DNA of 64,000 nucleotides from an uncultured Desulfovibrionaceae bacterium. Its GTDB lineage: Bacteria > Bacillota > Dethiobacteria > DTU022 > UBA8154. The stretch covers positions 46,922 to 110,921 of the forward strand of contig CAZOOA010000001.1 of assembly GCA_964581355.1 (NCBI GenBank), given 5' to 3'. Positions 4,037 through 62,546 of this stretch are shown here, piece after piece (the stretch's first letter is position 1; every line of letters starts with the position of its first letter). A program made the translations under genes and the position numbers. The notes below the pieces were generated by a model. That model did no database searches, had not been told where the DNA came from, and worked only from the letters and a program-made list of their open reading frames with translations.

Positions 4037-4561
4037 GTGAATGGTGAAATGGAGCAATACGGGCAGGTTGTGGATTTAACCAGCGATAAAAAAGCCCTGG
4101 TCAAGGTCAGGCAGCATCTGTCCTGTGAAAATTGCGGACGCTGTGGGGCGGCGACATTTTTCGGTGATCCCAGCAAGCGCAAGCTGGAAAACCTGGTAGA
4201 AGTATTAAACCCCATCGGTGCAGGACGGGGAGAGTTGGTGCGCCTGGAAGCACGGGCCAGTGAAATGCTCCTGGCTGCGTTCCTTCTGTATATTGTCCCC
4301 TTGTTGGCCCTGTTAGGCGGCCTTTTCGGTGGCAGGAGTATTGCTATCAGTCAGGAGCTTTCAGGCAGTCCCGACCTTTGGGGGGCCTTGATCGGGTTGG
4401 TGGTCATGGTTGCAGTTTTCCTGGTATTACGGGCCAAAGATGCCCAGTTTGCCAGTGGGACCCGCTTCAAGGCAGTCATTACAGCTGTGGTGGATGAATC
4501 GGAGATCCCCGAGGAAGCACGCCTGGTGGAACAAGAAGGGGACGAAGAGTGCGCTGAATAA
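4037..4561 (+). CDS. RseC/MucC-family protein (SoxR-reducing system component-like)
   Basis: The 174-aa ORF has an N-terminal CxxCxxC-containing domain (SCENCGRCGAATFF) followed by two TM helices, as in the RseC/MucC architecture. Confidence 0.6.
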   Translation: MNGEMEQYGQVVDLTSDKKALVKVRQHLSCENCGRCGAATFFGDPSKRKLENLVEVLNPIGAGRGELVRLEARASEMLLAAFLLYIVPLLALLGGLFGGRSIAISQELSGSPDLWGALIGLVVMVAVFLVLRAKDAQFASGTRFKAVITAVVDESEIPEEARLVEQEGDEECAE

Positions 4562-4582: not shown

Positions 4583-4680
4583 TATGGTCAGGGGAGCGTA
4601 GGAAACGTGGAAAAGGAAGCAAGAGAACCGTCCCCATGCTGCCCCTTCCCTGCTTCCCCATACTTCCATGTTTCCGGGCT
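4583..4680 (+). repeat. degenerate copy or fragment of the dispersed hairpin-repeat family (arm-2-like segment ...AGAGAACCGTCCCCATGCTGCC...)
   Basis: Matches the conserved arm (GCGCCAGAACCGTCCCCCTGCTTCGC) of the copies at 20870, 25912, 36416, 36829 and 46178. A second related fragment in inverted orientation lies around 4800-4870. Confidence 0.4.
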
Positions 4681-4974: not shown

Positions 4975-5262
4975 CTTCGAGCCGGGGTGGGGTAGAGGTG
5001 CGGCTGGCAAAGAGTATGTTCGAGAAAAGACGGTCCTTGATGAAACGGACAGAAAGGTGCCGCCGCCGAAGTTTTTGGTCCAAGGCCGGAGGCCAGAAGC
5101 TGGTTTGCCAGTGAATAACTGGCAAACTGTCACCCGTTCGAAAGGCCCTTTTCCCGGGTGGAGCGCTATCTCGCTGTGGGCATTTTTGAGGTTGCTTCTT
5201 GCGGTTTAAAGCGGCTACGGGTTTATCGTTGGTCGCTTTTTTGTTTTAAAATTTCCCTGAGG
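4975..5262 (+). promoter_or_regulatory. lysine riboswitch (L-box) with expression platform upstream of lysA
   Basis: The conserved L-box blocks are present in order: AGAGGTGCG, AAAGAGTATG, GAGAAAAGA, GAAAGGTGCCGCCGCCGAAG and GAGCGCTATCTCGCTG. They are collinear with the B. subtilis lysC leader and lie immediately 5' of lysA. Confidence 0.8.
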
Positions 5263-19526: not shown

Positions 19527-20153
19527 TTGATTGCAGTGGTAGACTACGGGATGGGAAATGTAACCAGTGTGCGCAATGGTTTCGAACTTTTAGGCATTGA
19601 AACGGTTTTGACCCATGATACCCTGGTTATGGACCGTTGTAAAGGCATTGTTGTGCCTGGAGTGGGGGCTTTTGGGTGTGCTGCTGATGACCTGGAACAG
19701 AAAGGGTTGATGGAGTACTTACAACACCGGGAAAGGCAGGGAACGTTTATCCTGGGTATTTGCCTGGGACTGCAGTTGTTCTTTGATGAGAGTGAAGAAG
19801 ACCCGGGCTTTGAAGGGATGCACCTTTTGCCCGGCCGGGTCATTCGCTTCCCCCACGGGGTGAAGGTCCCCCATATGGGCTGGAACCGGGTCTATTTTAC
19901 AAGAGAAGATCCTCTTTTTAACCAGGTCCCGGGGGAAAGCCATTTTTACTTTGCCCATTCTTTTTTTGCCAGCCCGGAAAACAAAGAACACGCCCTGGCC
20001 CATTGCAACTACGGTGCATCGTTTGCTGCTGCAGTAAAGAAAAACTCGGTATACGGCTTGCAGTTTCATCCGGAAAAAAGTGGCAGGTTGGGGCTGACGA
20101 TTTTGAAAAATTTTGAAAGGATGGTAGCCGATGCAGATCATTCCAGCAGTTGA
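19527..20153 (+). CDS. hisH: imidazole glycerol phosphate synthase, glutamine amidotransferase subunit
   Basis: The N-terminus (TTG start) reads IAVVDYGMGNV. A GAAGGAGG RBS lies upstream. Confidence 0.9.
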   Translation: MIAVVDYGMGNVTSVRNGFELLGIETVLTHDTLVMDRCKGIVVPGVGAFGCAADDLEQKGLMEYLQHRERQGTFILGICLGLQLFFDESEEDPGFEGMHLLPGRVIRFPHGVKVPHMGWNRVYFTREDPLFNQVPGESHFYFAHSFFASPENKEHALAHCNYGASFAAAVKKNSVYGLQFHPEKSGRLGLTILKNFERMVADADHSSS

Positions 20154-20856
20154 TCTCCATGGGGGCAAGTGTGTCCGCCTTTTGATGGGGGAAAGAGACC
20201 AGGAAACTGTCTACAGCGATAAACCGGCCCAGGTGGCATTGCAGTGGCAGCGGGCAGGAGCCCATCGCCTGCACCTGGTAGACCTGGACGGGGCTTTTGA
20301 CGGTGCCCCGGTAAATACGCCTGTTATTGAAGAGATTGTTTCCAACCTGTCTATCCCTGTTCAGCTTGGGGGGGGTATCCGTAGCGGGGAGATTGCTGCC
20401 AAGGCCCTGGAGTTGGGTGTTCAGCGGGTCATCCTGGGAACGGCTGCAGTGGAAAATCCCCACCTGGTTCGGGAACTGACCCAGGAATACGGGGATAGAA
20501 TTATTGTCGGCATCGATGCCCGGGATGGGATCGTGGCCATAAAGGGCTGGGTGAAAGGTTCGGGCTTTGATGCGGTGGGATTTGCCCTGACCATGCAGGA
20601 TTATGGTGTCAAAGAAATCATTTATACGGATATTTCCCGGGATGGCACACTGCAGGGGCCCAACCTTGCTGCCCTGGAGAATATGGCTGCACAATTAACC
20701 ATCCCCATTATTGCTTCCGGGGGGATCTCTTCCCTGGAAGACTTGAAAAACGTTCAAAAGCTAAAATCTGAGGGAGTCCACGGCATTATTATCGGTCAGG
20801 CCCTGTATGCTGGGCAGTTCACCTTGCAGGAAGCCCTGGCCGCTGTACAGAATTAA
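20131..20856 (+). CDS. hisA: 1-(5-phosphoribosyl)-5-[(5-phosphoribosylamino)methylideneamino]imidazole-4-carboxamide isomerase
   Basis: The N-terminus [17 protein letters not shown] begins a HisA TIM-barrel. Confidence 0.9.
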
Positions 20857-20869
20857 TATTTTATCATTT

Positions 20870-21015
20870 GTAATTGCTCAGCACTATTTTAAGCGAAGCT
20901 TTGGGGACTGTTTTGGTACTCCCGGAGTGAAGAGGAGGACCGACAGGAAAAGCTCCAGGACCATCCACCTGCTTCGCGGCAAGTCACACAATCAGATCAA
21001 GGCTGAGCCAGATGC
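20870..21015 (+). mobile_element. MITE-like hairpin element copy B (146 bp) inserted between hisA and hisF; flanked by a perfect 8-bp direct repeat TATCATTT
   Basis: The termini GTAATTGCTCAGC...GGCTGAGCCAGATGC form imperfect TIRs. The internal arms ...GGGGACTGTTTTGG... and ...GGACCATCCACCTGCTTCGCGG flank the conserved core GGAGGACCGACAGGAAAAGC. TATCATTT occurs at 20862-20869 and again at 21016-21023. Confidence 0.65.
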
Positions 21016-21091
21016 TATCATTTTCAACTATACTTGCTGGTTTACCGCAAGGCTTTTCAAGATCATATTTGTTTACTGGAGGGAGGATCTG

Positions 21092-21868
21092 TTGTTGGCA
21101 AAGCGTATAGTTCCCTGCCTGGATGTGAAAGATGGAAGAGTGGTGAAAGGGGTTCAATTTGTTGACCTGAGAGATGCAGGCGATCCAGTGGAACTGGCCC
21201 GGTTTTATGACAGTTCAGGGGCAGATGAACTGGTGTTTTTGGACATAACTGCATCCTACGAAAAGCGTGAGACCATGGTTGATGTGGCTCGCAGGACGGC
21301 CCGGGAGGTTTTCATCCCCTTTATTGTCGGTGGGGGGATCGATAACCTGGAACATATTCGGGCCATACTCAAAGCGGGGGCCGATAAGATCTCGCTAAAT
21401 ACCTCTGCTGTAAAAACTCCCCAGTTGATCCGGGAAGGAGCTCATACCTTTGGAAGCCAGTGTATCGTGGTAGCCATTGACGCCTGCTGGAACGAAGAGC
21501 TGGATGATTGGGAGGTTTACACCCACGGGGGGCGGACCCCAACGGGAATGTTAGCATTAAAATGGGCGGAAGAGGTGGAAAGCCTGGGCGCGGGAGAAAT
21601 CCTGCTGACCAGCATGAATGCCGACGGGGGGCAGGACGGATTTGATCTTCCATTAAACCGGGCAGTGGCGGAACGGGTAAACATACCCGTAATTGCTTCA
21701 GGCGGTGCAGGCAAAATAGAACATTTTGCCCAGGTATTGACCGAAGGAAAGGCAGATGCAGCCCTGGCGGCCTCGGTCTTTCACTTCCGCCAGTTTTCTG
21801 TTATGGAAGTAAAGAACTACTTACAGCAACAGGGTGTGGAGGTGCGTATGACCCATGAGCAGGGATAA
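21092..21868 (+). CDS. hisF: imidazole glycerol phosphate synthase, cyclase subunit
   Basis: Reads [20 protein letters not shown]... The start is placed at the TTG at 21092/21095 after a GGGAGG RBS. The ORF-track upstream extension (from 20807) reads through the repeat element and is unlikely to be translated. Confidence 0.9.
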
Positions 21869-25837: not shown

Positions 25838-25911
25838 GTATTCCCGGAAGATTGTATATTTTTCCTTTGCACCGGGCAAAAAAAAGGATAAAATAAATGT
25901 AAGGTTTTATC

Positions 25912-26020
25912 CAACTGCTCAGGGCTTTTGTAAGCGAGGTTGTGGAACAGTTCGGTCGCTCCCAAGGAAGCAGGGAAGCATGAGAACCGTCCCCTTGCTT
26001 CCTGTGTGCAGTTGTGTTAC
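25912..26020 (+). repeat. hairpin-repeat family copy C (short variant, about 109 bp) between aroB and the HD-domain gene
   Basis: Runs CAACTGCTCAGGGCTTTTGTAAGCGAGG...GAGAACCGTCCCCTTGCTTCC...GCAGTTGTGTTAC. It aligns with copies B, E and F but has a shorter loop. The flanking TTTT-rich direct repeats are only weak. Confidence 0.55.
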
Positions 26021-26035
26021 TTTTTGACAAAGCAG

Positions 26036-26731
26036 GTGTTGATCTTGGCACAGGAGCAGGTTTCGAAAAAACTATTGACGCTGGACGATATCCAGAATCA
26101 CCAGGCTGTTGTGGCCTATATCCGAAAAGCCAATGCCAATATGGGTTCCCTGGGTTATACGGAGCACGGGTTTCGGCATACGGATATGGTGGCCAATACG
26201 GCCTACAGGGTGATGAAAGACCTGGACTTCAAGCAAAGGGATGCAGAGTTGGCGGCCATAGCCGGCTACCTGCACGATATCGGCAACGTAGTGGAACGCA
26301 GCCACCATTATTACACAGGCGCCCTGATCGCCATGGGGCTGTTGAAAGAGATGGGTATGGATGAACTGGAGATTGCCGAGGTAGCTGCTGCCATCGGAAA
26401 TCACGACGAGGCCAACGGGCGGCCGGTCAGCAATGTTTCCGCGGCGGTGATCCTGGCCGACAAGGCGGATGTGCACCGCTCGCGGGTCCAAAACCGGGAC
26501 TATTCCACTTTTGATATCCATGACAGGGTTAATTATGCCGTGGAAGAGTCTATGCTGGATTTGGATCCTGAAGAACGGATCATCACGCTCAAGCTGAAAA
26601 TTGACACTAATATCAGCAGGGTTATGGAATACTTTGAAATCTTCCTGACGCGCATGTTGTTATGCCGTCGCGCGGCGGACTTTTTGTCCACCCGCTTTTC
26701 CCTGGTGATCAATGAGGCACAGCTGCTTTAA
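26036..26731 (+). CDS. HD/HDIG-domain metal-dependent phosphohydrolase
   Basis: Contains an HD motif (GFRHTDMV...GYLHDIGN). The start is uncertain: GTG 26036, TTG 26039 or TTG 26045. Confidence 0.6.
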   Translation: MLILAQEQVSKKLLTLDDIQNHQAVVAYIRKANANMGSLGYTEHGFRHTDMVANTAYRVMKDLDFKQRDAELAAIAGYLHDIGNVVERSHHYYTGALIAMGLLKEMGMDELEIAEVAAAIGNHDEANGRPVSNVSAAVILADKADVHRSRVQNRDYSTFDIHDRVNYAVEESMLDLDPEERIITLKLKIDTNISRVMEYFEIFLTRMLLCRRAADFLSTRFSLVINEAQLL

Positions 26732-34972: not shown

Positions 34973-36364
34973 CTATTCCTGAAAATAGCCCAGGATGGCA
35001 TCTTTTAAAGCGTTGGCTGCCAGTTCGTGGGTCTTTTCTGTTTTAAGTATTTTGGCATCGACTGCATTGGAGAGAAAAGCCAACTCAACCAGTGCAGAAG
35101 GAGTGGTAGACTCTTTTAAGATAGTAAACTCTGCCTCTTTAACACCCAGGCAGGGGAGTTGGAATGATCGGGTTAACTCCTTTTGCAGGCTGGAGGCAAG
35201 CTCGTAGCTTTTTTCACTGTTGGTGTCCCCCGGGTGATAAAAGGTTTCGGTGCCGGAGACAAAATGGTTGGGGTGGGCATTGGCATGGATGCTGACCAAA
35301 ATATCTGCCCCGGCTTCAGACTCGATCTCCAGCCGTTGGTCCATGGATAAGTCTTTGTCCCTATCTCGGGTCAGGACCACCCGGGCGCCTTTTTCCTTTA
35401 GCTTTTCTTCCAGCAGCAGGGACACGGACAGGCACACTTCTTTTTCTTTTAGCCCGTTGATCCCGGTAGCGCCGCCGTCCCTTCCGCCATGTCCCGGGTC
35501 CAGGACAATGGTTTTACCCTGAAGATCCCGGTTTTTGTCCGGGTTTGAGCTTTGATGATCCTCCCGGAAGGAGAGGATTTCTTTTTGTTCCGTGTAATCG
35601 CTGCTGACCCAACCTTCTGCCCCTCCCGGAAGGAGTACATTGTGCCAACCCTTTTCCCGATCCAGGATTAACAGGTGGTTGCCCTGGAAGGCCTGTTCTG
35701 TTTGCTCCCGGTCCAGCCCCGGGCCGGAGCGTACCCGGAGTATTTCTGGCACTACTTTGGCCAGTTGAAAATAGGTTTCCGGTTCGGTTTTTTCTTTTTC
35801 CTGCGGTTTGTCTTTTATAACCCGGATGTATTGTTCAGAGATCCAGCCGCTTTCTTCCCCAGCCTTTACTTTCAACCAGCCTTCTTTTTCTTCTTTAACT
35901 GTTGCTTCTTTTTTTTGCGGCAATGTCCCGATCTGGTCGTAATCTGTCCCCGGTCCTGTCCTCATATTTAACAGGTTGATTTCAACTTCAGCTTCAACTT
36001 CCAAAAGGTCTGGCAGCTTGTCCTTCAGTTCCGTATTATAACTGGTGTAGGAAGCATCGACCCACCCGGAGTGCCCGCCTTCCAGTGCAACCAGGATCCA
36101 ATCCTGGTCATAAGAGTAAACTTCCAAAGACTGTCCTGATGAAACCTGCTTGATTTGCTCATAAGAAGTTGAAGGTCCGGTTCTGACGTTTAACAGGGAA
36201 GCTTCAACCTGGACGGCAGGCTGATCGAAAGTGGCTTCAGCCGACAGCGGGGCCGGGCAGAAAAGTAGCAGCAAAAATGATGTCATCAACAGGCCAATAA
36301 TGAAAGAGGTGCCGCCGGACCTGTTGAATTTCGCCTCTTTTGTATTCCTGGCATACTTGAACAT
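34973..36364 (-). CDS. N-acetylmuramoyl-L-alanine amidase (Amidase_3) with signal peptide and three SH3b domains (YrvJ-like)
   Basis: The C-terminus has the Amidase_3 motifs (DPGHGGRDGGA...HANA) and the N-terminal region has three SH3b repeats. The start at 36364 is preceded by an AGGAGG RBS. The ORF-track extension to 36496 is unlikely to be translated. Confidence 0.8.
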   Translation of the reverse strand: MFKYARNTKEAKFNRSGGTSFIIGLLMTSFLLLLFCPAPLSAEATFDQPAVQVEASLLNVRTGPSTSYEQIKQVSSGQSLEVYSYDQDWILVALEGGHSGWVDASYTSYNTELKDKLPDLLEVEAEVEINLLNMRTGPGTDYDQIGTLPQKKEATVKEEKEGWLKVKAGEESGWISEQYIRVIKDKPQEKEKTEPETYFQLAKVVPEILRVRSGPGLDREQTEQAFQGNHLLILDREKGWHNVLLPGGAEGWVSSDYTEQKEILSFREDHQSSNPDKNRDLQGKTIVLDPGHGGRDGGATGINGLKEKEVCLSVSLLLEEKLKEKGARVVLTRDRDKDLSMDQRLEIESEAGADILVSIHANAHPNHFVSGTETFYHPGDTNSEKSYELASSLQKELTRSFQLPCLGVKEAEFTILKESTTPSALVELAFLSNAVDAKILKTEKTHELAANALKDAILGYFQE

Positions 36365-36415
36365 AATCGCTAGCCTCCTGTTTGGATGAAAAGAAACGGG
36401 GATGAAAAGAATTTT

Positions 36416-36606
36416 TAGCTGATCAGCGCTATTTACAAGCGAACCTGTTGGGACCGTTCCGGCGCCTCTGGGACGCAGCACAGGCTTCAGGGACATTTCT
36501 CTGGTATTTAGCGGTGTTCCTTCATTTTTTGAATAACGGGAAAGCGCCAGTATTGCCCCACTGCTTCGCTGCGTGTCGCGTAATCACACCAGGGCGGAGC
36601 AGTAAC
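36416..36606 (+). repeat. hairpin-repeat family copy D (long-loop variant, about 191 bp) in the amidase/hisS divergent intergenic region
   Basis: Runs TAGCTGATCAGCGCTATTTACAAGCGAACC-TGTTGGGACCGTTCCGGCGCC...GGGAAAGCGCCAGTATTGCCCCACTGCTTCGCTGCG...GGGCGGAGCAGTAAC. It has the same orientation as copy E, which lies 222 bp downstream. Confidence 0.55.
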
Positions 36607-36759
36607 AAGGTTTTTATGCTTGACCTCAAAAAGTTGTCTCTTGGAAACCTGGAGGCGGCCTGCATGAATTTTAGCATATTTTAACTAATTTGCAAAGGCG
36701 ACAATTTGCCAGAAATATAGCTGCTGCGGACAAAAACCTATTCAGGAAAGATTCATAAG

Positions 36760-36789
36760 TTGACAAGGCCTGGTTAATTAGCTTAAAAT
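36760..36789 (+). promoter_or_regulatory. sigma-A promoter (TTGACA-17 bp-TTAAAAT) for hisS-aspS
   Basis: TTGACA at 36760-36765 and TAAAAT at 36784-36789. The transcript would carry repeat copy E in its 5' UTR. Confidence 0.5.
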
Positions 36790-36828
36790 CAACTTGTATC
36801 TGAACAAAAACGAAACGAATCACGGAGG

Positions 36829-36970
36829 TAATTGCTCAGAGCTATTTGCAAGTGAAGCCGTGGGGACGGTTCTGGCGCTTCCGGAGCGTAGCGGAGGACC
36901 GACAGGGAAAGCGACAGAACTGTCCCCCTGCTTCGCGGTGTGTGGTGTAGTAAGTGGGCTGAGCAGTTAC
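36829..36970 (+). mobile_element. MITE-like hairpin element copy E (142 bp) inserted at the hisS ribosome-binding site; flanked by 9-bp direct repeats TCACGGAGG / TCATGGAGG
   Basis: The TIR is TAATTGCTCAG...CTGAGCAGTTAC. The internal 25-bp imperfect stem is GAAGCCGTGGGGACGGTTCTGGCGC / GCGACAGAACTGTCCCCCTGCTTC, around the core GGAGGACCGACAGGGAAAGC. The downstream direct repeat supplies the GGAGG RBS 7 nt before the hisS ATG. Confidence 0.65.
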
Positions 36971-36986
36971 TCATGGAGGCTATCCG

Positions 36987-38267
36987 ATGAAGAATAAAGC
37001 ACCGCGCGGGACAAGAGATGTGCTGCCGGCAGACATGCCTGCCTGGCATTACCTGGAGAACGTGTTTCAAAAGCTTTGCCATGTTTACGGTTATTCCGAG
37101 ATTCGCACACCTATTTTTGAAGACGTGGAAGTTTTTACGCGAAGTGTGGGTGAGGAGAGCGATGTGGTGGCAAAAGAGATGTATACCTTCACCGATCGGG
37201 GCGGGAGGCATTTGGCTTTAAGGCCTGAGTGTACAGCCGGAGTGGCCAGGGCCTTTATCGAACATGGTTTTCATAATCAACCCCAGCCGGTAAAGCTCTA
37301 TTACCTGGGACCTATGTTCCGCTATGACCGTCCCCAGGCCGGTAGACAGCGGCAGTTTTACCAGATGGGAATCGAACTTTTTGGGTCAACGGCTCCTGCA
37401 GCCGATGTAGAGGTGATCAAGTTTACTTATGATTTTTTTCGACAGGTCGGGTTTGATCGGTTGGAGTTACATATTAACAGTGTTGGGTGTAGAAGCTGTC
37501 GGCCGACGTACCAGGAGCAGTTAAAAACTGCTATCCAGCCTTTCGCCTCCAAACTGTGTGCCGATTGTCGAAAACGCCTTGAAACCAACCCTCTCCGCTT
37601 GCTGGACTGCAAATCACCCGGCTGCCAGGAAGCATCAACCGATGCTCCCAAGATAGACCAAAGCTTATGCCAGCCCTGCCAGTCTCACTACCAGGAAGTA
37701 AAAAGCAAGCTGGACTTACTGGGCATTGATTACAAACCCGACCCATACCTGGTCAGGGGACTGGATTATTATACCCATACGGCATTTGAATTTGTTTCGA
37801 CCAAGCTGGGGACCCAGAGCTCCCTGGGAGGAGGAGGCCGTTACGATAATTTGGTGGAAGTCTGCGGCGGAAACCCGACCCCGGGCGTAGGGATGGCTGT
37901 CGGTGTGGAGCGCATTTTGCTGGCCATGGGGAAGGAAGGGATCTCCCTGCCGGCAACTGGCCTGGAAGGCGTTTATGTCGCTGCGGGAACTTCTGCCCTG
38001 CAGGAAGAAGGGACAAAGCTTTTATACCGCCTTCGCGGTGCTGGGATCAGGGCGGAAACCGATTATATGGGGCGCAGCCTTAAGTCTATGATGAAAAATG
38101 CCCATCGCGGCAGGTTCCGTTATGTGGTCATCCTGGATCAGGAAACAGAAGACCAGGGGACCTGGAAAATCAGGGATATGGGCAGCGGAGAGCAGCAGAA
38201 GTATCCTCCTGGCGCGGCGGAGCAACTATTGCTGGATGAACGGGAACAGGATGGTGCTTTAAATTAA
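36987..38267 (+). CDS. hisS: histidine--tRNA ligase
   Basis: The 426-aa ORF has class II aaRS motifs and the N-terminus MKNKAPRGTRDVLP. Confidence 0.9.
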   Translation: MKNKAPRGTRDVLPADMPAWHYLENVFQKLCHVYGYSEIRTPIFEDVEVFTRSVGEESDVVAKEMYTFTDRGGRHLALRPECTAGVARAFIEHGFHNQPQPVKLYYLGPMFRYDRPQAGRQRQFYQMGIELFGSTAPAADVEVIKFTYDFFRQVGFDRLELHINSVGCRSCRPTYQEQLKTAIQPFASKLCADCRKRLETNPLRLLDCKSPGCQEASTDAPKIDQSLCQPCQSHYQEVKSKLDLLGIDYKPDPYLVRGLDYYTHTAFEFVSTKLGTQSSLGGGGRYDNLVEVCGGNPTPGVGMAVGVERILLAMGKEGISLPATGLEGVYVAAGTSALQEEGTKLLYRLRGAGIRAETDYMGRSLKSMMKNAHRGRFRYVVILDQETEDQGTWKIRDMGSGEQQKYPPGAAEQLLLDEREQDGALN

Positions 38268-38311: not shown

Positions 38312-40099
38312 ATGCGACTAAAAAGAACGTGCTATTGTGGTGAACTAAATAGAGACCATATCGGTGAGCAGGTTGTTGTTGCCGGTTGGGTCCAGGGGCG
38401 CCGGGACCATGGCGGACTTATTTTTATTGACCTGAGGGATCGGCAGGGTATGGTTCAGGTGGTTTTTGACCAGCAAAAAAACGCGAATTTCTTTTCCCAG
38501 GCGGAGAAACTGCGCTCGGAGTATGTGATTGCAGTTCAGGGCGAGGTTGTGGCCCGTTCAGAGGAAACAGTGAATCCCAAGCTTTTCACCGGAGAAATAG
38601 AAATTACCACGGAAGACCTGGAAGTGCTCAGCACGGCAAAAACTCCTCCTTTTTATATTGAAGACGAGTTGGATACAGACGAAAACCTGCGTTTAGCTTA
38701 TCGTTACCTGGATCTAAGGCGGGGAGAAATGCAGAAATCCCTGCAGCTAAGGCACAGGGTAACTATGGCTACCCGGGAATACCTGGATAGAGCAGGTTTT
38801 TGGGAAATCGAGACACCGGTACTGACCCGCAGCACACCGGAAGGTGCCCGGGATTACCTGGTACCCAGCCGAACAGCACACGGCAGTTTTTTCGCCCTGC
38901 CCCAATCTCCCCAGCTGTTCAAGCAATTGTTGATGGTTTCCGGTACAGATAAATACTTCCAGATTGTCCGATGCTTCCGGGACGAAGATTTGCGGGCGGA
39001 CCGCCAGCCTGAATTTACTCAAATAGACCTGGAGATGAGCTTCTGCCAGCGCCAGGAGGTAATGGAACAGGTCGAAGGGTTGATGCAGCACCTGTTTTCC
39101 AGCGTTCTATCCAGGGAAATCAGCCTTCCCTTTAAAGTAATCACCTACGATCAGGCCATGGAAAAATACGGAAGTGACCGGCCCGACACCCGCTTTGGAA
39201 TGGAGATCGTTGACATTTCAGGCATCTCCCTGCAATCGGAATTCAAGGTATTTAAAAAAGTTGTGGAGCAGGGAGGAGCGGTGAAAGGGCTTAAGGTAAA
39301 AGGTGGAGGGACTTTCAGCAGAAAAGAACTGGATGACCTCACGGCCATGGTTCAATCCTGGGGCACCGGAGGACTGGCCTGGATGATTATGACGGAAGAA
39401 GAAGTGAAATCTCCTGTCAGCAAATTTTTTTCCGGGGAGCAGTTGGCCGGGATCAAGGAGCAAATGGAAGCCGCCCCCGGGGATCTGCTGCTTTTTGTAG
39501 CGGATAAAAAGGAGACAGCATTAAAAATATTGGGGCAATTGCGGTTGCACCTGGCCCAGCAGTTAAAGATTATCCCGGATGATGTGGATGATTTCCTCTG
39601 GGTGGTGGATTTTCCCCTGTTTGCTTATGACGAGGTGGAAAAACGGTTTGTTTCCAACCACCATCCCTTTACAGCTCCCCTGGAGGAGGATCTTCCCAGG
39701 CTGGAACAAAATCCCCTGGAAGCTCGCTCGCAGGCTTATGACCTGGTTTACAATGGAATTGAAGTGGCGGGGGGAAGCATCCGTATCCACGATAAAGGGA
39801 TGCAGGAAAGGATTTTTTCCCTCCTGAATATTTCTGCAGAGGAAGCAATGGAGAAATTTGGATTTTTGCTGAAGGCATTCGAATATGGTGCCCCTCCTCA
39901 CGGGGGGATTGCTTTTGGCCTGGACAGGTTAATTATGCTAATGGCTGGCAAAAAGAGCATCCGGGATGTGATTCCCTTTCCCAAAACGGCTTCGGGTAAT
40001 TGTTTAATGACCGGTGCGCCTACGCCGGTTGCGCCGGAGCAGCTGAAAGAACTGCATATTTCTCCCGTTTTAAAAGAAACTAATGGTGATAAGGAATAA
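38312..40099 (+). CDS. aspS: aspartate--tRNA ligase
   Basis: The 595-aa ORF has an OB-fold anticodon-binding domain, an insertion domain and a class II core (FRDEDLRADRQPEFTQID). Confidence 0.9.
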   Translation: MRLKRTCYCGELNRDHIGEQVVVAGWVQGRRDHGGLIFIDLRDRQGMVQVVFDQQKNANFFSQAEKLRSEYVIAVQGEVVARSEETVNPKLFTGEIEITTEDLEVLSTAKTPPFYIEDELDTDENLRLAYRYLDLRRGEMQKSLQLRHRVTMATREYLDRAGFWEIETPVLTRSTPEGARDYLVPSRTAHGSFFALPQSPQLFKQLLMVSGTDKYFQIVRCFRDEDLRADRQPEFTQIDLEMSFCQRQEVMEQVEGLMQHLFSSVLSREISLPFKVITYDQAMEKYGSDRPDTRFGMEIVDISGISLQSEFKVFKKVVEQGGAVKGLKVKGGGTFSRKELDDLTAMVQSWGTGGLAWMIMTEEEVKSPVSKFFSGEQLAGIKEQMEAAPGDLLLFVADKKETALKILGQLRLHLAQQLKIIPDDVDDFLWVVDFPLFAYDEVEKRFVSNHHPFTAPLEEDLPRLEQNPLEARSQAYDLVYNGIEVAGGSIRIHDKGMQERIFSLLNISAEEAMEKFGFLLKAFEYGAPPHGGIAFGLDRLIMLMAGKKSIRDVIPFPKTASGNCLMTGAPTPVAPEQLKELHISPVLKETNGDKE

Positions 40100-40185: not shown

Positions 40186-40515
40186 AAAATTGCGAAAAAT
40201 GCAAGGGATATTCCCTACTGTGTGCGTGTAAAATCGCGAATGTTTTGAGCTAACACTAACGAAATGGGAGCCTGGACTTTACATGCGGCGCAGAAGCCTT
40301 GGTCGGAACGAGGACCTGCAAAGCATGTAAGAGGGCACCCACCTTGAGAGAGGGCGTTCAAAACAAGCGGTCCACGGCACAGTGGGGTTATTTTATTTGT
40401 GCCTGTTTTTACGATCAAGCCAGCAGAAAGCCCACGGCTTTAGCCGAGGGATGAATACTTAATAGACAGTTGACTTGATGGTTGAGTCGGGTATTTTGTT
40501 GCCGGGGGTGAGGAA

Positions 40516-41844
40516 GTGGCTGCACGACCCATTCGGGAAACATTAACGGAAATATTATGGCAGGTAAAAGAAGGGACTCATCCCAGCGACCTGGCAGAAC
40601 TGGTGGATGAGTTGGGCGATGAACAGAAAAAAGAACTGTTTGGCCTTCTTTCCGATGAAGATGCCGCTTTAATCATCCAGGAGATGGAGGATTTTGACCA
40701 GGTTTCTCTTCTGCGGCTTTTAACCCGACACAGGGCATCAGCAATTTTAAGGGAAATGTCTGCTGACGACGCCACAGACCTGGTGGGGGAGCTGCCGGAA
40801 GAAGAAGCCAGGGAGCTTCTTGCCTTGATTGATGAGGAAGCAGAAGAAATCAAGGGGCTGTTAAAATACCCCGAAGATACAGCCGGCGGACTCATGACAA
40901 CGGAATTTATTGCCCTGCCGGAAGACATACCTGTAGAGGAAGCTATTGCCCGGCTTCGTGAAGTCGCTCCGGATGCGGAAATTGTTTATTATGTTTATGT
41001 GGTCGATGTCCAGACCAAGCTTAGCGGGGTCCTTTCCTTGAGAGATCTGATTGCCGCAGACGATGGAACACTGCTTCGCGATATAATGTTCCGTAACATT
41101 ATCAGCGTCCAGGTTGAGATGGACCAGGAAGAAGTGGCCCGGGTTGTCTCCCGTTATGACCTGTTGGCTGTCCCCGTGGTTGACGGGGATAACCGCCTGC
41201 TGGGGATCATTACTGTAGACGATATCCTCGATGTTATTGAAGAAGAGGCTACGGAAGACATTTATAGATTGACCGGGACCGGCGAAGTAACCGGGGTGGA
41301 CATCCTGCAGGCCTCTGTCTTTGGGCTGGCTCGCAAAAGGATGCCCTGGTTGTTAATCAGCTTAATGGGGGGGTTACTATCCGGGAGTGTTATCGGTGCT
41401 TTTGAAAACACCCTGGAGACCATAGTGATTCTGGCGGTGTTTATCCCTGTTATTATGGATATGGGCGGAAACGTGGGGACCCAGTCTTCCACTCTGTTTG
41501 TCCGGGGCCTGGCTACGGGAGAAATTGGGCCTGCCGAGGTCTGGCGCTACTTTTTCCGGGAGACCCGGGTAGGGTTGACGATTGGACTTGTAAACGGTAT
41601 TTTTGTCTCTGTGGTCGCTACCCTTTGGCAGGGAATGCCCCTACTGGGGGTAGTTGTGGGTGTAGCCATGTTCAGCACCATTACCCTGGCAGCGTTGATC
41701 GGCACCCTGGTGCCCATGTTTTTCAATCATTACGGTATTGACCCGGCCATTACAGCAGGTCCTTTTGTGACTACGATCAAAGATGTGACAGGTCTGCTTA
41801 TATATTTCTGGATAGCCACGGCCTTCATGGAACACCTGATTTAA
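40516..41844 (+). CDS. mgtE: magnesium transporter MgtE
   Basis: Has an MgtE N-domain, tandem CBS domains and a C-terminal 5-TM MgtE domain. GTG start after a GGGGGTGAGGAA RBS. Confidence 0.85.
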   Translation: MAARPIRETLTEILWQVKEGTHPSDLAELVDELGDEQKKELFGLLSDEDAALIIQEMEDFDQVSLLRLLTRHRASAILREMSADDATDLVGELPEEEARELLALIDEEAEEIKGLLKYPEDTAGGLMTTEFIALPEDIPVEEAIARLREVAPDAEIVYYVYVVDVQTKLSGVLSLRDLIAADDGTLLRDIMFRNIISVQVEMDQEEVARVVSRYDLLAVPVVDGDNRLLGIITVDDILDVIEEEATEDIYRLTGTGEVTGVDILQASVFGLARKRMPWLLISLMGGLLSGSVIGAFENTLETIVILAVFIPVIMDMGGNVGTQSSTLFVRGLATGEIGPAEVWRYFFRETRVGLTIGLVNGIFVSVVATLWQGMPLLGVVVGVAMFSTITLAALIGTLVPMFFNHYGIDPAITAGPFVTTIKDVTGLLIYFWIATAFMEHLI

Positions 41845-41946
41845 CCCGGTCTAACCAACCGATATTTTGTTGTAAACAGGCGGTTCATGGTTCCTGATGA
41901 GGCGGGATTTCTTTTTTTCCCCCTCTTTTCGAAAAAAAAGATAAAA

Positions 41947-41990
41947 AGAGAAAGGTTGTAACAAAAACCTTTCTCTTTTTTTTTTATTTT
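41947..41990 (+). terminator. intrinsic terminator downstream of mgtE
   Basis: AGAGAAAGGTT-GTAACAAAA-AACCTTTCTCT is followed by a run of more than 10 T residues. Confidence 0.75.
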
Positions 41991-42111
41991 TTTAATTTTT
42001 TAGTGGCAGGAATTTTAAAAATGGGGTAGAATAAATATAAAAAGTGGTTTAAAGTGGTTTGAAGTGGAGAAGCAGGCTGGCCAATTCATTGCGAAGTGGA
42101 GTTAAGCTGTT

Positions 42112-46094: not shown

Positions 46095-46177
46095 ACTTCT
46101 TTGGTTAAACCGGTATTTGTATCCTGCTTGGTGTAAATACTAGTAGCCTGTGAAGGAGAAAAAAGATACAATGAATG

Positions 46178-46335
46178 TAATTGCTCAGGAGATGTATTGT
46201 TCAGATCTATTTATAAGCTAGGCTGTGAGGACTGTTCGTGCGTTTCCTGAGTAAAGCGAAGGACCAAATGGGAAAGCGCCAGAACCGTCCCCCTGCTTCG
46301 CAAGGTATGAAGCAAAGTTGGGCTGAAAGCTATTG
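46178..46335 (+). mobile_element. MITE-like hairpin element copy F (about 158 bp) between the class B PBP gene and murE in the dcw cluster
   Basis: Runs TAATTGCTCAGG...(internal partial duplication TTGTTCAGATCTATTTATAAGC)...GGGAAAGCGCCAGAACCGTCCCCCTGCTTCGC...GGGCTGAAAGCTATTG. It is flanked by ATGAAT / ATGAAC direct repeats (imperfect). Confidence 0.55.
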
Positions 46336-60037: not shown

Positions 60038-60955
60038 ATGTACCTGGACCTGGTAATCATTTTGAACATTATTGTGAACACCTTTTTACTTGCCCTGACC
60101 GGTTTTATCGCTCGTCAAAGAACCACTTCCTTAAGGGTGCTGTCCGGCGGTATTCTGGGAGCCTCCTGCTTGCTTTTCTTATACGAGCCTGGGATTGTGC
60201 CGTTTGTGTCGGTGTTTCGCTTCCTGCTGCCATTTTTAATGCTTTGGGTTGCTTTCCGTCCCCGTTGTTGGGAACATTTTTTGTTGTTGTTTTTCGTTTT
60301 TACCCTGACCACCTTTCTCTTCGGTGGTATTATAATCTCCTTCAGCGCTGTAATTGCCCATTCCCAGCAAAATATTGCGGAAAGCAGCCTTTATGCCGTG
60401 CCGTCTGTACCATTTTTTATAATTGCCGCTTCCGGGCTTTACCTGTTCCTTCGCTTCCTGGTTTACCCACTGTTGTCCCGGCGGCTTCGTTTTCGCCTGC
60501 CTTCATCAACATTGGCACTGGAACTTGTTTTTCAAGGCAAAAAGAAAACGATGCATGCTTACCTGGATACAGGAAATATGCTCAAGGAACCCTTTACCGG
60601 CATGCCAGTAGCCGTGGCAGCGTATTCTGCGGTGCAGGATTTGCTGCCCCGAGGGGTTTGTGAACTTATCCGCCAATCCCCTGGTCTGGACTGGATGAAA
60701 ATGGAGAATGTCTATAAACAGCTGGACCAACCGGAAATATTTACCTGGGTTCCTTACCATAGCATTGGTGGCAGTGGTTTCCTGCTGGCGTTCAAACCTG
60801 AACAGGTAAGTGTTTGGAATGGAACACAGTGGACCGCAGTGTCCAACACGCTGCTGGTTGCCATTAAAGAAAAGCCTGGTGTAGTTTCAGGAGAGGATTT
60901 TGAAATTCTTTTGCCTCTGGAAATATGGTTGCAAGTGGAGGCCGGGGAGTGTTGA
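60038..60955 (+). CDS. spoIIGA: sporulation sigma-E factor-processing peptidase SpoIIGA
   Basis: Has a 5-TM N-terminal domain and a C-terminal aspartic protease motif (YLDTGN). The start at 60038 follows an AGGCAGGTGA RBS. Confidence 0.85.
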
Positions 60956-60960
60956 ACAAA

Positions 60961-61692
60961 ATGGAAAAAATGAAACGTCGTTACTGGAATGTAAGGCTTA
61001 AGCTGCTTCATTTAACCCGAAAGTTTGGTTTAAGCTATGGGAAAATTATTTACTATGTCAGCAACAACAAAGCGTTGCCACCGCCACTTACACGGGAAGA
61101 GGAGTCTTCACTGCTGGAACAATTAAAGACAGGCGATGAGCAGGTTCGCACCTCATTAATCGAAAGGAACCTCCGGTTGGTAGTCTATATTGCAAGAAAG
61201 TTTGAAAATACGGGACTGGCAGTGGACGATCTGGTGTCTATTGGGACCATTGGACTGATTAAAGCGGTTAATACATTTGATCCTCATAAGAACATTAAGC
61301 TGGCCACTTACGCTTCAAAATGTATTGAAAATGAAATATTAATGTATTTGAGGCGGAACAACAAACTTAAAGCGGAAATATCTTTCGATGAACCCTTGAA
61401 TGTGGACTGGGACGGAAACGAATTGCTCCTTTCTGATGTGCTGGGTACGGAAGATGATCTGGTTATTCGCAACCTTGAAGAGGAAGTGGATAGGAAACTT
61501 CTCTACATGGCTATTGACAAGCTTTCCGCCAGGGAAAAAAAGATTATGCAATTACGATTTGGTTTACACAACAGGCAGGAAAAAACACAGAAAGAAGTCG
61601 CTGAGCTGTTAGGTATTTCTCAGTCTTATATTTCCCGACTGGAAAAAAGAATCATCAAAAGGTTGAAAAAAGAGATAAAAAAAATGGAATAA
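60961..61692 (+). CDS. sigE: RNA polymerase sporulation sigma factor SigE (pro-sigma-E)
   Basis: Has a pro-sequence followed by [11 protein letters not shown], and sigma-70 regions 2-4. The start is 60961 or 60970. Confidence 0.9.
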
Positions 61693-61775
61693 TAACATCT
61701 GGAATAAAAACAGATTTGGGAGGAAATAATTTAAATGTAAATAAAGTCAATGTTCAACAGGGAGAGGATCGATCA

Positions 61776-62546
61776 GTGAACAAGGTTGAAATATGTGGAG
61801 TGAATACTGCCAAACTTCCCGTGTTGACCAATAATGAGATGCGCCAGTTATTTGTTCAGGTTCAGGAGGGAAACAGCAAGGCCAGGGAAAAACTGATCAG
61901 TGGCAACTTAAGGCTGGTTTTGAGTGTCATCCAGCGTTTTCATAACCGGGGTGAGCTGGTAGATGACCTTTTCCAGGTAGGTTGTATCGGGTTAATTAAG
62001 GCGATCGACAATTTTGACCTGGAACAAAATGTCAAGTTTTCCACTTATGCAGTTCCGATGATTATCGGTGAAATCCGCCGCTATCTTCGTGATAACACTC
62101 CTGTAAGGGTAAGTCGTTCCCTGCGGGATATTGCCTACAAGGTTTTGCAGGTCAGGGATCACATGGCCCATAAAATGTCCCGAGAACCCAGCCTGGAAGA
62201 AATAGCCAGGGAACTGGATTTCAGCAGGGAAGAAATAATTCTGGCCCTGGATTCCATCCAGGAACCGGTTTCTTTATTTGAGCCTATCTATCATGACGGT
62301 GGAGATCCTATTTTTGTCATGGATCAAATAAGCGATGAAAAAAATTGCGATGAAAAATGGCTGGAAGTATTATCGATCAAAGATGCCTTACACCAGCTGA
62401 ACGACAGGGAAAAGAACATTTTAATGCTGCGATTTTTTCGGGGCAAAACACAAATGGAGGTTGCTGAAGAAATAGGTATTTCCCAGGCCCAGGTATCCAG
62501 GCTGGAAAAATCAGCATTAACTCAAATTCGGAAAAATATTCAATGA
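61776..62546 (+). CDS. sigG: RNA polymerase sporulation sigma factor SigG
   Basis: Reads VNKVEICGVNTAKLPVLTNNEMRQLF... with sigma-70 regions 2-4. The GTG start at 61776 follows an AGGGAGAGG RBS. The ORF-track start is 61716. Confidence 0.9.
   Translation: MNKVEICGVNTAKLPVLTNNEMRQLFVQVQEGNSKAREKLISGNLRLVLSVIQRFHNRGELVDDLFQVGCIGLIKAIDNFDLEQNVKFSTYAVPMIIGEIRRYLRDNTPVRVSRSLRDIAYKVLQVRDHMAHKMSREPSLEEIARELDFSREEIILALDSIQEPVSLFEPIYHDGGDPIFVMDQISDEKNCDEKWLEVLSIKDALHQLNDREKNILMLRFFRGKTQMEVAEEIGISQAQVSRLEKSALTQIRKNIQ

Follow-up and report, generated by a model that had tools for sequence, protein, structure and literature searches.

Two copies of a small, transposon-like repeat with IS66/ISBst12-type ends between an amidase gene and hisS of an uncultured Dethiobacteria-like Firmicute

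A T-box leader (RF00230) precedes hisS in many Firmicutes. In the 64-kb stretch of DNA analyzed here (hereafter, the window), the 622-bp region between the start of an amidase gene on the minus strand and the ATG of hisS on the plus strand contains two copies of a repeat, D and E, which have the same orientation and are separated by 221 bp. This arrangement raises the question of whether the copies are leader RNAs that act in place of a T-box, the products of an insertion hotspot, or ordinary mobile DNA. The original prediction, which was based on the sequence of the window, described two members of one repeat family in an apparent hotspot, with a plain promoter and no T-box in front of hisS. 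As set out below, D and E are very probably ordinary dead-end copies of a small non-coding transposon and not a new regulatory RNA.

The repeat family in the window and elsewhere

A covariance model of the repeat, R1, was built from eight copies, all taken from other metagenomes and outside the window, so that its application to the window was non-circular. Within the window, R1 detected copies E, F, B, D, and C, all on the plus strand, with E-values from 5e-39 to 2e-5 (Table 1). The significant scores of both E and D bear out the proposal that the two belong to one family and share an orientation, and the predicted coordinates were within 1 nt of ours (for D, a start at 36416, a length of 191 bp, and a gap of 222 bp to E, compared with 36415, 192 bp, and 221 bp). 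The expansion of the loop of D to about 80 nt was also confirmed. Its apex contains a private insertion of 46–52 nt (about 36478–36535), which accounts for 46 extra alignment columns and gives an unpaired top of approximately 75–80 nt. No counterpart of this insert occurred among the other copies examined. A subfamily of D-type, long-loop copies was considered and rejected, because the insert matched nowhere else. The suggestion that the family has structural subtypes is only weakly supported: the insert of D is an indel private to an old copy, and the recurrent variant is an 8-nt insertion, CATACCAG, at the 3′ end, common to three copies from outside the window (L128, L131, and L145). Among the other variants, L128 and L163 have an inverted apex, F has its 5′ end doubled, and L158 carries a deletion.

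Table 1. Features of the amidase–hisS region, family copies in the window, and target-site duplications of copies inside and outside it (bits and E-values refer to R1; fractions are matching positions)
Feature	Position	Strand	Sequence	Details
Copy A	4614..4644	+	GGAAGCAAGAGAACCGTCCCCATGCTGCC	Single REP-like hairpin; core motif alone
Copy B	20870..21015	+		71.5 bits
Duplication, B			TATCATTT / TATCATTT	8/8, perfect
Copy C	25911..26039	+		29.8 bits; short, divergent; MITE-like 5′ arm, REP-type 3′ core
N-acetylmuramoyl-L-alanine amidase gene	34973..36364	-		Amidase_3 and SH3 domains; AGGAGG precedes the start at 36364
Duplication, D	36407..36414 / 36607..36614	+	AAGAATTT / AAGGTTTT	6/8
Copy D	36415..36606	+	TTAGCTGATCAG ... 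CGGAGCAGTAAC	192 bp; 56.1 bits, E=3.6e-12; full-length match (36415-36605)
Candidate amidase promoter	36668..36696	-	TTTGCA-17-TAAAAT	TG extension (extended -10); consensus scan only
Predicted hisS promoter	36760..36789	+	TTGACA-18-TAAAAT	Consensus scan, 11/12; upstream of E
Duplication, E	36820..36827 / 36971..36978	+	TCACGGAG / TCATGGAG	7/8
Copy E	36828..36970	+	GTAATTGCTCAG ... CTGAGCAGTTAC	143 bp, near-consensus; 159.9 bits, E=5e-39
hisS Shine-Dalgarno	36975..36979	+	GGAGG	Overlapped by the downstream duplication copy of E
hisS (histidine-tRNA ligase)	36987..38267	+		ORF list, Pfam domains
aspS	38312..40099	+		Next gene after hisS
Copy F	46177..46334	+		80.8 bits (match 46193-46334); 5′ terminal repeat doubled
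Duplication, L128			ATTTAATT / ATTTAATT	8/8
Duplication, L131			TTTTCTTT / TTTTCTTT	8/8
Duplication, L145			TTTCAATT / TTTCAATT	8/8
Duplication, L135			TAATTTTA / TAATTTTT	7/8
Duplication, L141			ATAACGAT / AAAACGAT	7/8

In addition to the five copies in the window, at least 10 distinct copies were found in other metagenomes and genomes. The copies are 122–192 bp long (typically about 145 bp) and contain only spurious short ORFs. Only a few sources yielded the long form: the genome analyzed here, a MAG of Dethiobacter (L060, whose copy shares 82.6% identity with E over 115 nt), and several metagenomes. A blastn search of 72,556 plasmids with E gave no match. The five window copies all lie on the plus strand, as do nearly all genes there, an arrangement expected by chance in about 1 in 16 cases; some selection on orientation may operate within this genome. 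Outside the window, copies occurred in both orientations relative to their neighbors, according to a crude ORF map.

D lies on the amidase side of two back-to-back predicted promoters and probably occupies the leader of the amidase gene; if the candidate amidase promoter is used, D would be antisense within an amidase leader of approximately 295 nt. On the other side, the sigma-A-type promoter and the repeat were the only elements found before hisS, as had been predicted. Transcription of hisS would start downstream of this promoter, and because the promoter lies upstream of E, the hisS–aspS mRNA should contain E in its 5′ leader. The description of the region as an insertion hotspot did not hold: when five copies were placed at random in about 5 kb of non-coding DNA divided into 30 intervals, two shared an interval in about 46% of the simulations. 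Furthermore, the targets of the family are mostly A/T-rich, so that promoter regions are favored.

Terminal repeats, target-site duplications, and the insertion at the hisS Shine-Dalgarno

The copies are bounded by terminal inverted repeats of 12–15 nt, GTAAYTGCTCAG(C), with the 3′ complement CTGAGCARTTAC. These ends are present in E and in three copies from elsewhere (L060, L135, and L141); the terminal repeats of D are degraded (9/12 and about 10/12). Immediately outside the ends, 8-bp target-site duplications were detected: over 12 copies, 75 of the 96 flank positions matched, compared with 28.4±5.3 (maximum 38) in shifted controls. The duplications of individual copies are listed in Table 1, and most of the duplicated 8-mers are A/T-rich. 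Two clear copies, L060 and L157, had no target duplication. Its terminal repeats, its duplication of fixed length, its small size, the occurrence of multiple copies, and the lack of an ORF together identify the family as a MITE. Thus, we consider it very probable that the family is a MITE and that D and E arose by separate insertions, with the ends and the duplication of an IS66-type element of the ISBst12 group. As far as could be found, this MITE family of the IS66/ISBst12 type is undescribed. The original prediction had not recognized the MITE identity; what it had said of the family, the orientation, the apex, and the absence of a T-box stood, and its hotspot did not.

Four relatives (L177, L179, L180, and L181), whose HisS proteins were 58–74% identical to that of the window and which shared the gene order relA-dtd-hisS-aspS-6S-mgtE, clarified the history of E. 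In all four, the promoter is conserved (TTGACA-17/18-TAAAAT or TACAAT) and is located 45–70 nt before the hisS ATG, leaving a short leader of 45–70 nt without the element; R1 detected no copy in loci L177–L182. When E and the downstream copy of its duplication were removed from the window sequence (...gaatcacGGAGGctatccgATG), the remainder aligned with L177 without a gap from the -35 box to the ATG. The downstream duplication copy overlaps the Shine-Dalgarno of hisS; the GGAGG remains in place, 7 nt ahead of the ATG, and the hairpin of E ends 4 nt upstream of the ribosome-binding site. From this comparison, E can be recognized as an insertion that is specific to this lineage, lies precisely at the hisS Shine-Dalgarno, and duplicated TCAYGGAG. 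In the relatives, both the amidase gene and the DNA around D are missing from this position.

E forms one long hairpin that spans the whole element (-73.7 kcal/mol, z=-5.8). In D, by comparison, the stem pairs are broken and the stable hairpin has been lost, such that its fold was no better than that of shuffled sequence (z=-0.33). With its near-consensus sequence and 7/8 duplication, E appears to be the younger copy; D, with degraded ends, a 6/8 duplication, a lost hairpin, and the private apical insert, appears to be the older. The probable course of events is that a transposase supplied in trans pasted the MITE into mostly A/T-rich 8-bp targets and duplicated them, that D was an earlier insertion that has since decayed, and that E landed later in the 5′ leader of hisS, downstream of the promoter and on the Shine-Dalgarno that precedes the start codon, where the duplication of TCAYGGAG would have regenerated a functional GGAGG. 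The hisS mRNA would then carry a very stable hairpin of 143 nt, which may influence its stability or translation. The operon of an essential aminoacyl-tRNA synthetase thus seems to tolerate a perfect hairpin of 143 nt on its ribosome-binding site, and this tolerance can be attributed to the regeneration of that site by the 8-bp duplication.

Kinship with IS66/ISBst12 elements and with REP sequences

ISDge4 from Deinococcus geothermalis, a member of the ISBst12 group of the IS66 family, has the terminal repeats GTGACTACTCAGCA / GTAACTGCTCAGCA and generates an 8-bp direct repeat, CCTCGATG (PMC12898284). The terminal repeat of the MITE, which begins with GTAACTGCTCAGC, was identical to the published ISDge4 repeat over 12–14 nt. 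When published full text was searched, the terminal repeat led to the ISDge4 paper alone, and the core motif of the MITE interior to nothing relevant. A second point of comparison is a single-ORF element on the Geobacillus kaustophilus plasmid pHTA426, whose protein matches DDE_Tnp_IS66 (218 bits). We read its ends as GTATCTATTCAGCCC / GTAACTATTCAGCCC, with GACGAGTT on both sides. When the MITE is read inward from its 3′ terminus, the sequence is GTAACTGCTCAGCCC, which matches these ends at 13 of 15 positions. In other words, the MITE and the insertion sequences of the ISBst12 group have in common ends that begin with GTAACTGCTCAGC and an 8-bp target-site duplication. They differ in size and content: an insertion sequence of this group has a length of about 1.6 kb and one DDE_Tnp_IS66 ORF, whereas the MITE measures about 145 bp and has no transposase gene; moreover, the interior of the MITE is REP-like and bears no relation to the subterminal region of the pHTA426 element. 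The similarity of the ends and the length of the duplication suggest that the MITE is mobilized in trans by an ISBst12-type enzyme.

Neither the window nor approximately 2.3 Mb of fetched loci contained an IS66-type transposase with MITE ends, and a tblastn search with the Geobacillus IS66 transposase against 183 loci, the window, and 103 viral contigs detected nothing. Pairs of terminal repeats 0.1–4 kb apart, sought in all loci as the marks of a full-length parent, were chance pairs only, as were the matches of the 15-nt terminal repeat in the 103 viral contigs. One locus, L125, was considered as a full-length parent and rejected; it contains genes for PdxS, Ddl, and EF-G but none for a transposase.

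Bacterial MITEs include Correia/NEMIS in Neisseria, RUP in Streptococcus pneumoniae, and ERIC/IRU in enterics; the whole element can form a hairpin, and copies often lie in leaders or between the genes of an operon, where they are co-transcribed. The present MITE resembles bacterial MITEs in general in these respects, in being small, non-coding, and multi-copy, and in having terminal inverted repeats and a target duplication. It differs from them in its parent family (here IS66/ISBst12), its REP-type core, and its host, an uncultured Dethiobacteria-like Firmicute from metagenomes.

The REP/REPIN-like interior is the only mildly unusual feature of the family. It consists of two inverted REP-like cores, ...GAAGC-N3-GGGGACGGTTC... 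and ...GAACCGTCCCC-N-TGCTTC..., around a short apex. An 18-mer of the 3′ arm, GAACYGTCCCCYTGCTTC, occurs in many Firmicutes among the matches listed (one genome per species), including Pelotomaculum, Syntrophomonas, Desulfosporosinus, Dethiobacter, Bacillus, and relatives, where the motif takes the form of a hairpin of about 29 nt, GGAAGCARGA-GAACCGTCCCC-YTGCTTCC, present singly, in inverted pairs, or in arrays. When the ORFs of the fetched loci were clustered, one recurrent family, found in seven loci, matched Y1_Tnp and also the NCBIfam model REP_Tyr_transpos for REP-associated tyrosine transposases (81 bits; cutoff, 80). The 11-nt loop core GAACCGTCCCC, with one mismatch at most, brackets these RAYT genes in inverted orientation in L026 (twice), L118, L130, and L154, which indicates that, in Firmicutes, the core belongs to a RAYT system as its REP. 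Group 1 RAYTs have already been reported from Clostridia (Bertels et al. 2017, PMC5581495). The core thus seems to be common to the RAYT-flanking hairpins of Bacilli and Clostridia and to an IS66-type MITE, which may be of interest for the evolution of REPs and REPINs.

REP and REPIN-RAYT systems, reportedly described by Bertels and Rainey in 2011, share with the MITE the two inverted REP cores and the hairpin architecture, and single REP-like hairpins are present in the window too, as copy A; the MITE is distinguished by its added IS66-type terminal repeats and 8-bp target duplications. The elements could accordingly be read as REPINs, i.e., inverted REP doublets moved as single-stranded hairpins by a RAYT and not by a DDE transposase. 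The wide occurrence of the 18-mer and the inverted cores around Y1_Tnp/REP_Tyr_transpos genes described above would fit, as would the flipped apex of L128 and L163, which is typical of hairpin elements, and the fact that REPs are usually moved by this other class of enzymes (HUH/Y1 RAYT). However, HUH/Y1 transposition (IS200/IS605, RAYT) creates no target duplication, whereas the 8-bp duplications here are strongly supported; the outermost 12–15 nt match IS66/ISBst12 ends and are missing from the RAYT-flanking REPs; and no RAYT or Y1_Tnp gene was seen in the 64-kb window. We regard this reading as very unlikely. A broader proposal combines both kinds of feature: the family would be a chimera in which a REPIN-like doublet was captured between IS66/ISBst12 ends, with C as a recombination intermediate and E as an exapted hairpin of the hisS leader. 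REPIN-like doublets are the usual substrate of the domesticated HUH/Y1 transposase RAYT, and if the proposal were true, REPs would now be spread by DDE cut- or copy-and-paste, or would be movable by either enzyme. Taken as a whole, it is speculative, and we put it forward with considerable doubt.

E in the hisS leader: transposon copy or regulatory RNA

The claim that the region contains no T-box or His leader was upheld. Searched with Rfam at the gathering score, the whole window contained no T-box and gave only a lysine riboswitch (4985-5176) and a 6S RNA (40209-40392); at E<=10, positions 36300-37100 contained neither a T-box nor a His leader and gave only chance matches to mir-621 and sR39. 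The mir-621 match was rejected as that of a generic long hairpin, with 27 bits against a cutoff of 71. The hisS loci of the four relatives were also without a T-box. Because these relatives have neither the repeats nor a T-box, the absence of the T-box is a property of the lineage that is unrelated to the repeats, and neither D nor E substitutes for a T-box. E is like a T-box leader in that it follows the promoter, precedes the hisS start, and has a roughly comparable length, and in nothing else; it is without the specifier or antiterminator architecture, and copies of its family adjoin unrelated genes.

A functional role could still be imagined in which E is a cis-regulatory leader RNA of hisS, a sensor of histidine or tRNA or a stabilizer, that has replaced the T-box, with B as a second copy. 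E has a very stable fold and is placed after the promoter and before the ribosome-binding site, B sits between two His_biosynth genes, which we take to be hisA and hisF, the window copies are all co-oriented with transcription, and seven pairs of the inner stem show compensatory double changes. Nevertheless, such changes are equally expected of a transposon that relies on a DNA hairpin or inverted repeats, and the stem mismatches were divided almost evenly between G-U (18) and A-C (16). This lack of strand asymmetry is expected of a DNA palindrome and not of an RNA selected on one strand; together with the mixed orientation outside the window, it led us to reject selection at the RNA level. 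Moreover, the element is bounded by target duplications, four relatives that share the promoter lack it in front of hisS, and neither a terminator or anti-terminator alternative nor a U-tract occurs in the hisS leader. Nor do the neighbors of the copies point to histidine. In the window, D adjoins the amidase gene, C the aroB/HD-domain genes, and F the pbp/murE genes; elsewhere, copies adjoin 19 unrelated, non-histidine genes, for example, those for EF-G, thiolase, Ldh, SDR, symporters, a germination protease, and DivIVA, and lie in both orientations according to the crude ORF map. A link to histidine, suggested by B in the his operon and E at hisS, was rejected, because the genes next to 10 other copies are unconnected with histidine, and was treated as a coincidence. 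A dedicated regulatory RNA at hisS is, therefore, extremely improbable.

More plausible, and yet unlikely in our estimation, is that E arose as a MITE and was later exapted, so that its hairpin tunes hisS–aspS via mRNA stability, RNase processing, or translation initiation and has been retained for this reason. The leader of an essential operon has tolerated the insertion, with the ribosome-binding site exactly preserved, the hairpin is still present when the predicted hisS leader is folded as a whole (centroid structure), and E has remained intact while D decayed. On the other hand, youth would explain the intactness of E equally well, since no other copy matches the family consensus as well as E does; moreover, only one genome carries E, which counts against a case for its retention.

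With D and E read as transposon copies, the repeat family of the window is explained, and the long hisS leader can be annotated as transposon-derived and not as a riboswitch or T-box. Assemblies from short reads broke inside E in two cases (L123 and L124), as expected for a repeat, and contigs of this lineage should be read with the warning that they break at these hairpins.

REP-associated transposase genes and the hairpin core

The REP-like core GAACCGTCCCC, which is also contained in the MITE (a non-coding hairpin element of ~145 bp), occurred as inverted copies on both sides of Y1_Tnp genes in four loci outside the window (L026, L118, L130, and L154; one mismatch allowed). The RAYT-type genes, listed in the table with their transposase matches, scored 81 bits with NF047646 against a cutoff of 80. 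Furthermore, the full hairpin, GAAGCAnnA-GAACCGTCCCC-nTGCTTC, was present across Bacilli and Clostridia. Given this distribution, the hairpin together with the transposase genes that it flanks is therefore a widespread Firmicute REP/RAYT system.

Positions of transposase matches, hairpin copies, and 6S RNAs
Feature	Locus	Position	Remark
REP-associated tyrosine transposase	L026	174-1222	Y1_Tnp, NF047646
REP-associated tyrosine transposase	L026	3875-4728	Y1_Tnp, NF047646
REP-associated tyrosine transposase	L118	6013-6873	Y1_Tnp, NF047646
REP-associated tyrosine transposase	L130	4188-5059	Y1_Tnp, NF047646
REP-associated tyrosine transposase	L154	58-868	Y1_Tnp, NF047646
Copy A, single REP-like hairpin	window	4614-4644	just past ORF 4037-4561, upstream of lysine riboswitch 4985-5176
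MITE copy B	window	20870-21015	perfect duplication TATCATTT
Copy C, hybrid-looking	window	25911-26039	MITE-type 5' end and arm, REP-type 3' core GGGAAGCATGAGAACCGTCCCCTTGCTTCC
6S RNA	window	40209-40392	
6S RNA	L177	6247-6431	
6S RNA	L179	3340-3523	
6S RNA	L180	6139-6326	
6S RNA	L181	6171-6348	

Sites and variant forms of the MITE

Copy B lies within the histidine-biosynthesis operon, flanked by two His_biosynth genes, one at 20131-20856 and the other with its domain beginning near 21100; a mechanically called ORF (20807-21868) runs across the element. Copy F is located in the cell-wall cluster, with a gene for a PBP transpeptidase on one side and one for a Mur ligase on the other, and its 5' terminal repeat is duplicated and degenerate (GTAATTGCTCAG...GTATTGTTCAG, window 46177-46215). 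Copy C may represent a recombinant or intermediate form. In two copies outside the window (L128, 6508-6661; L163, 5929-6063), the apical segment was reversed relative to the arms, and in L128 the covariance model built from eight non-window copies scored nearly equally on the two strands. In two independent short-read assemblies (L123 and L124), the contig end, position 1, fell inside the apex of copy E, the copy in the hisS leader; contigs of the window's organism evidently break at MITE hairpin repeats.

The hisS neighborhood and other repeats in the window

A 6S RNA was located directly downstream of aspS and ahead of mgtE in the window genome and in all four relatives whose MITE-free hisS loci were compared. 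The SH3-amidase gene (window 34973-36364), which lies between dtd and hisS, was missing from L177, L180, and L181, where hisS directly follows dtd. Just past the ORF at 40516-41844, there is a long A/T- and purine-rich palindrome (41908-41991), possibly a terminator. Elsewhere in the window, a 66-nt direct repeat with 71% identity (61582-61647 and 62445-62510), whose units fall within two adjoining ORFs (60925-61692 and 61716-62546), appears to correspond to the helix-turn-helix region of sigma factor paralogs.
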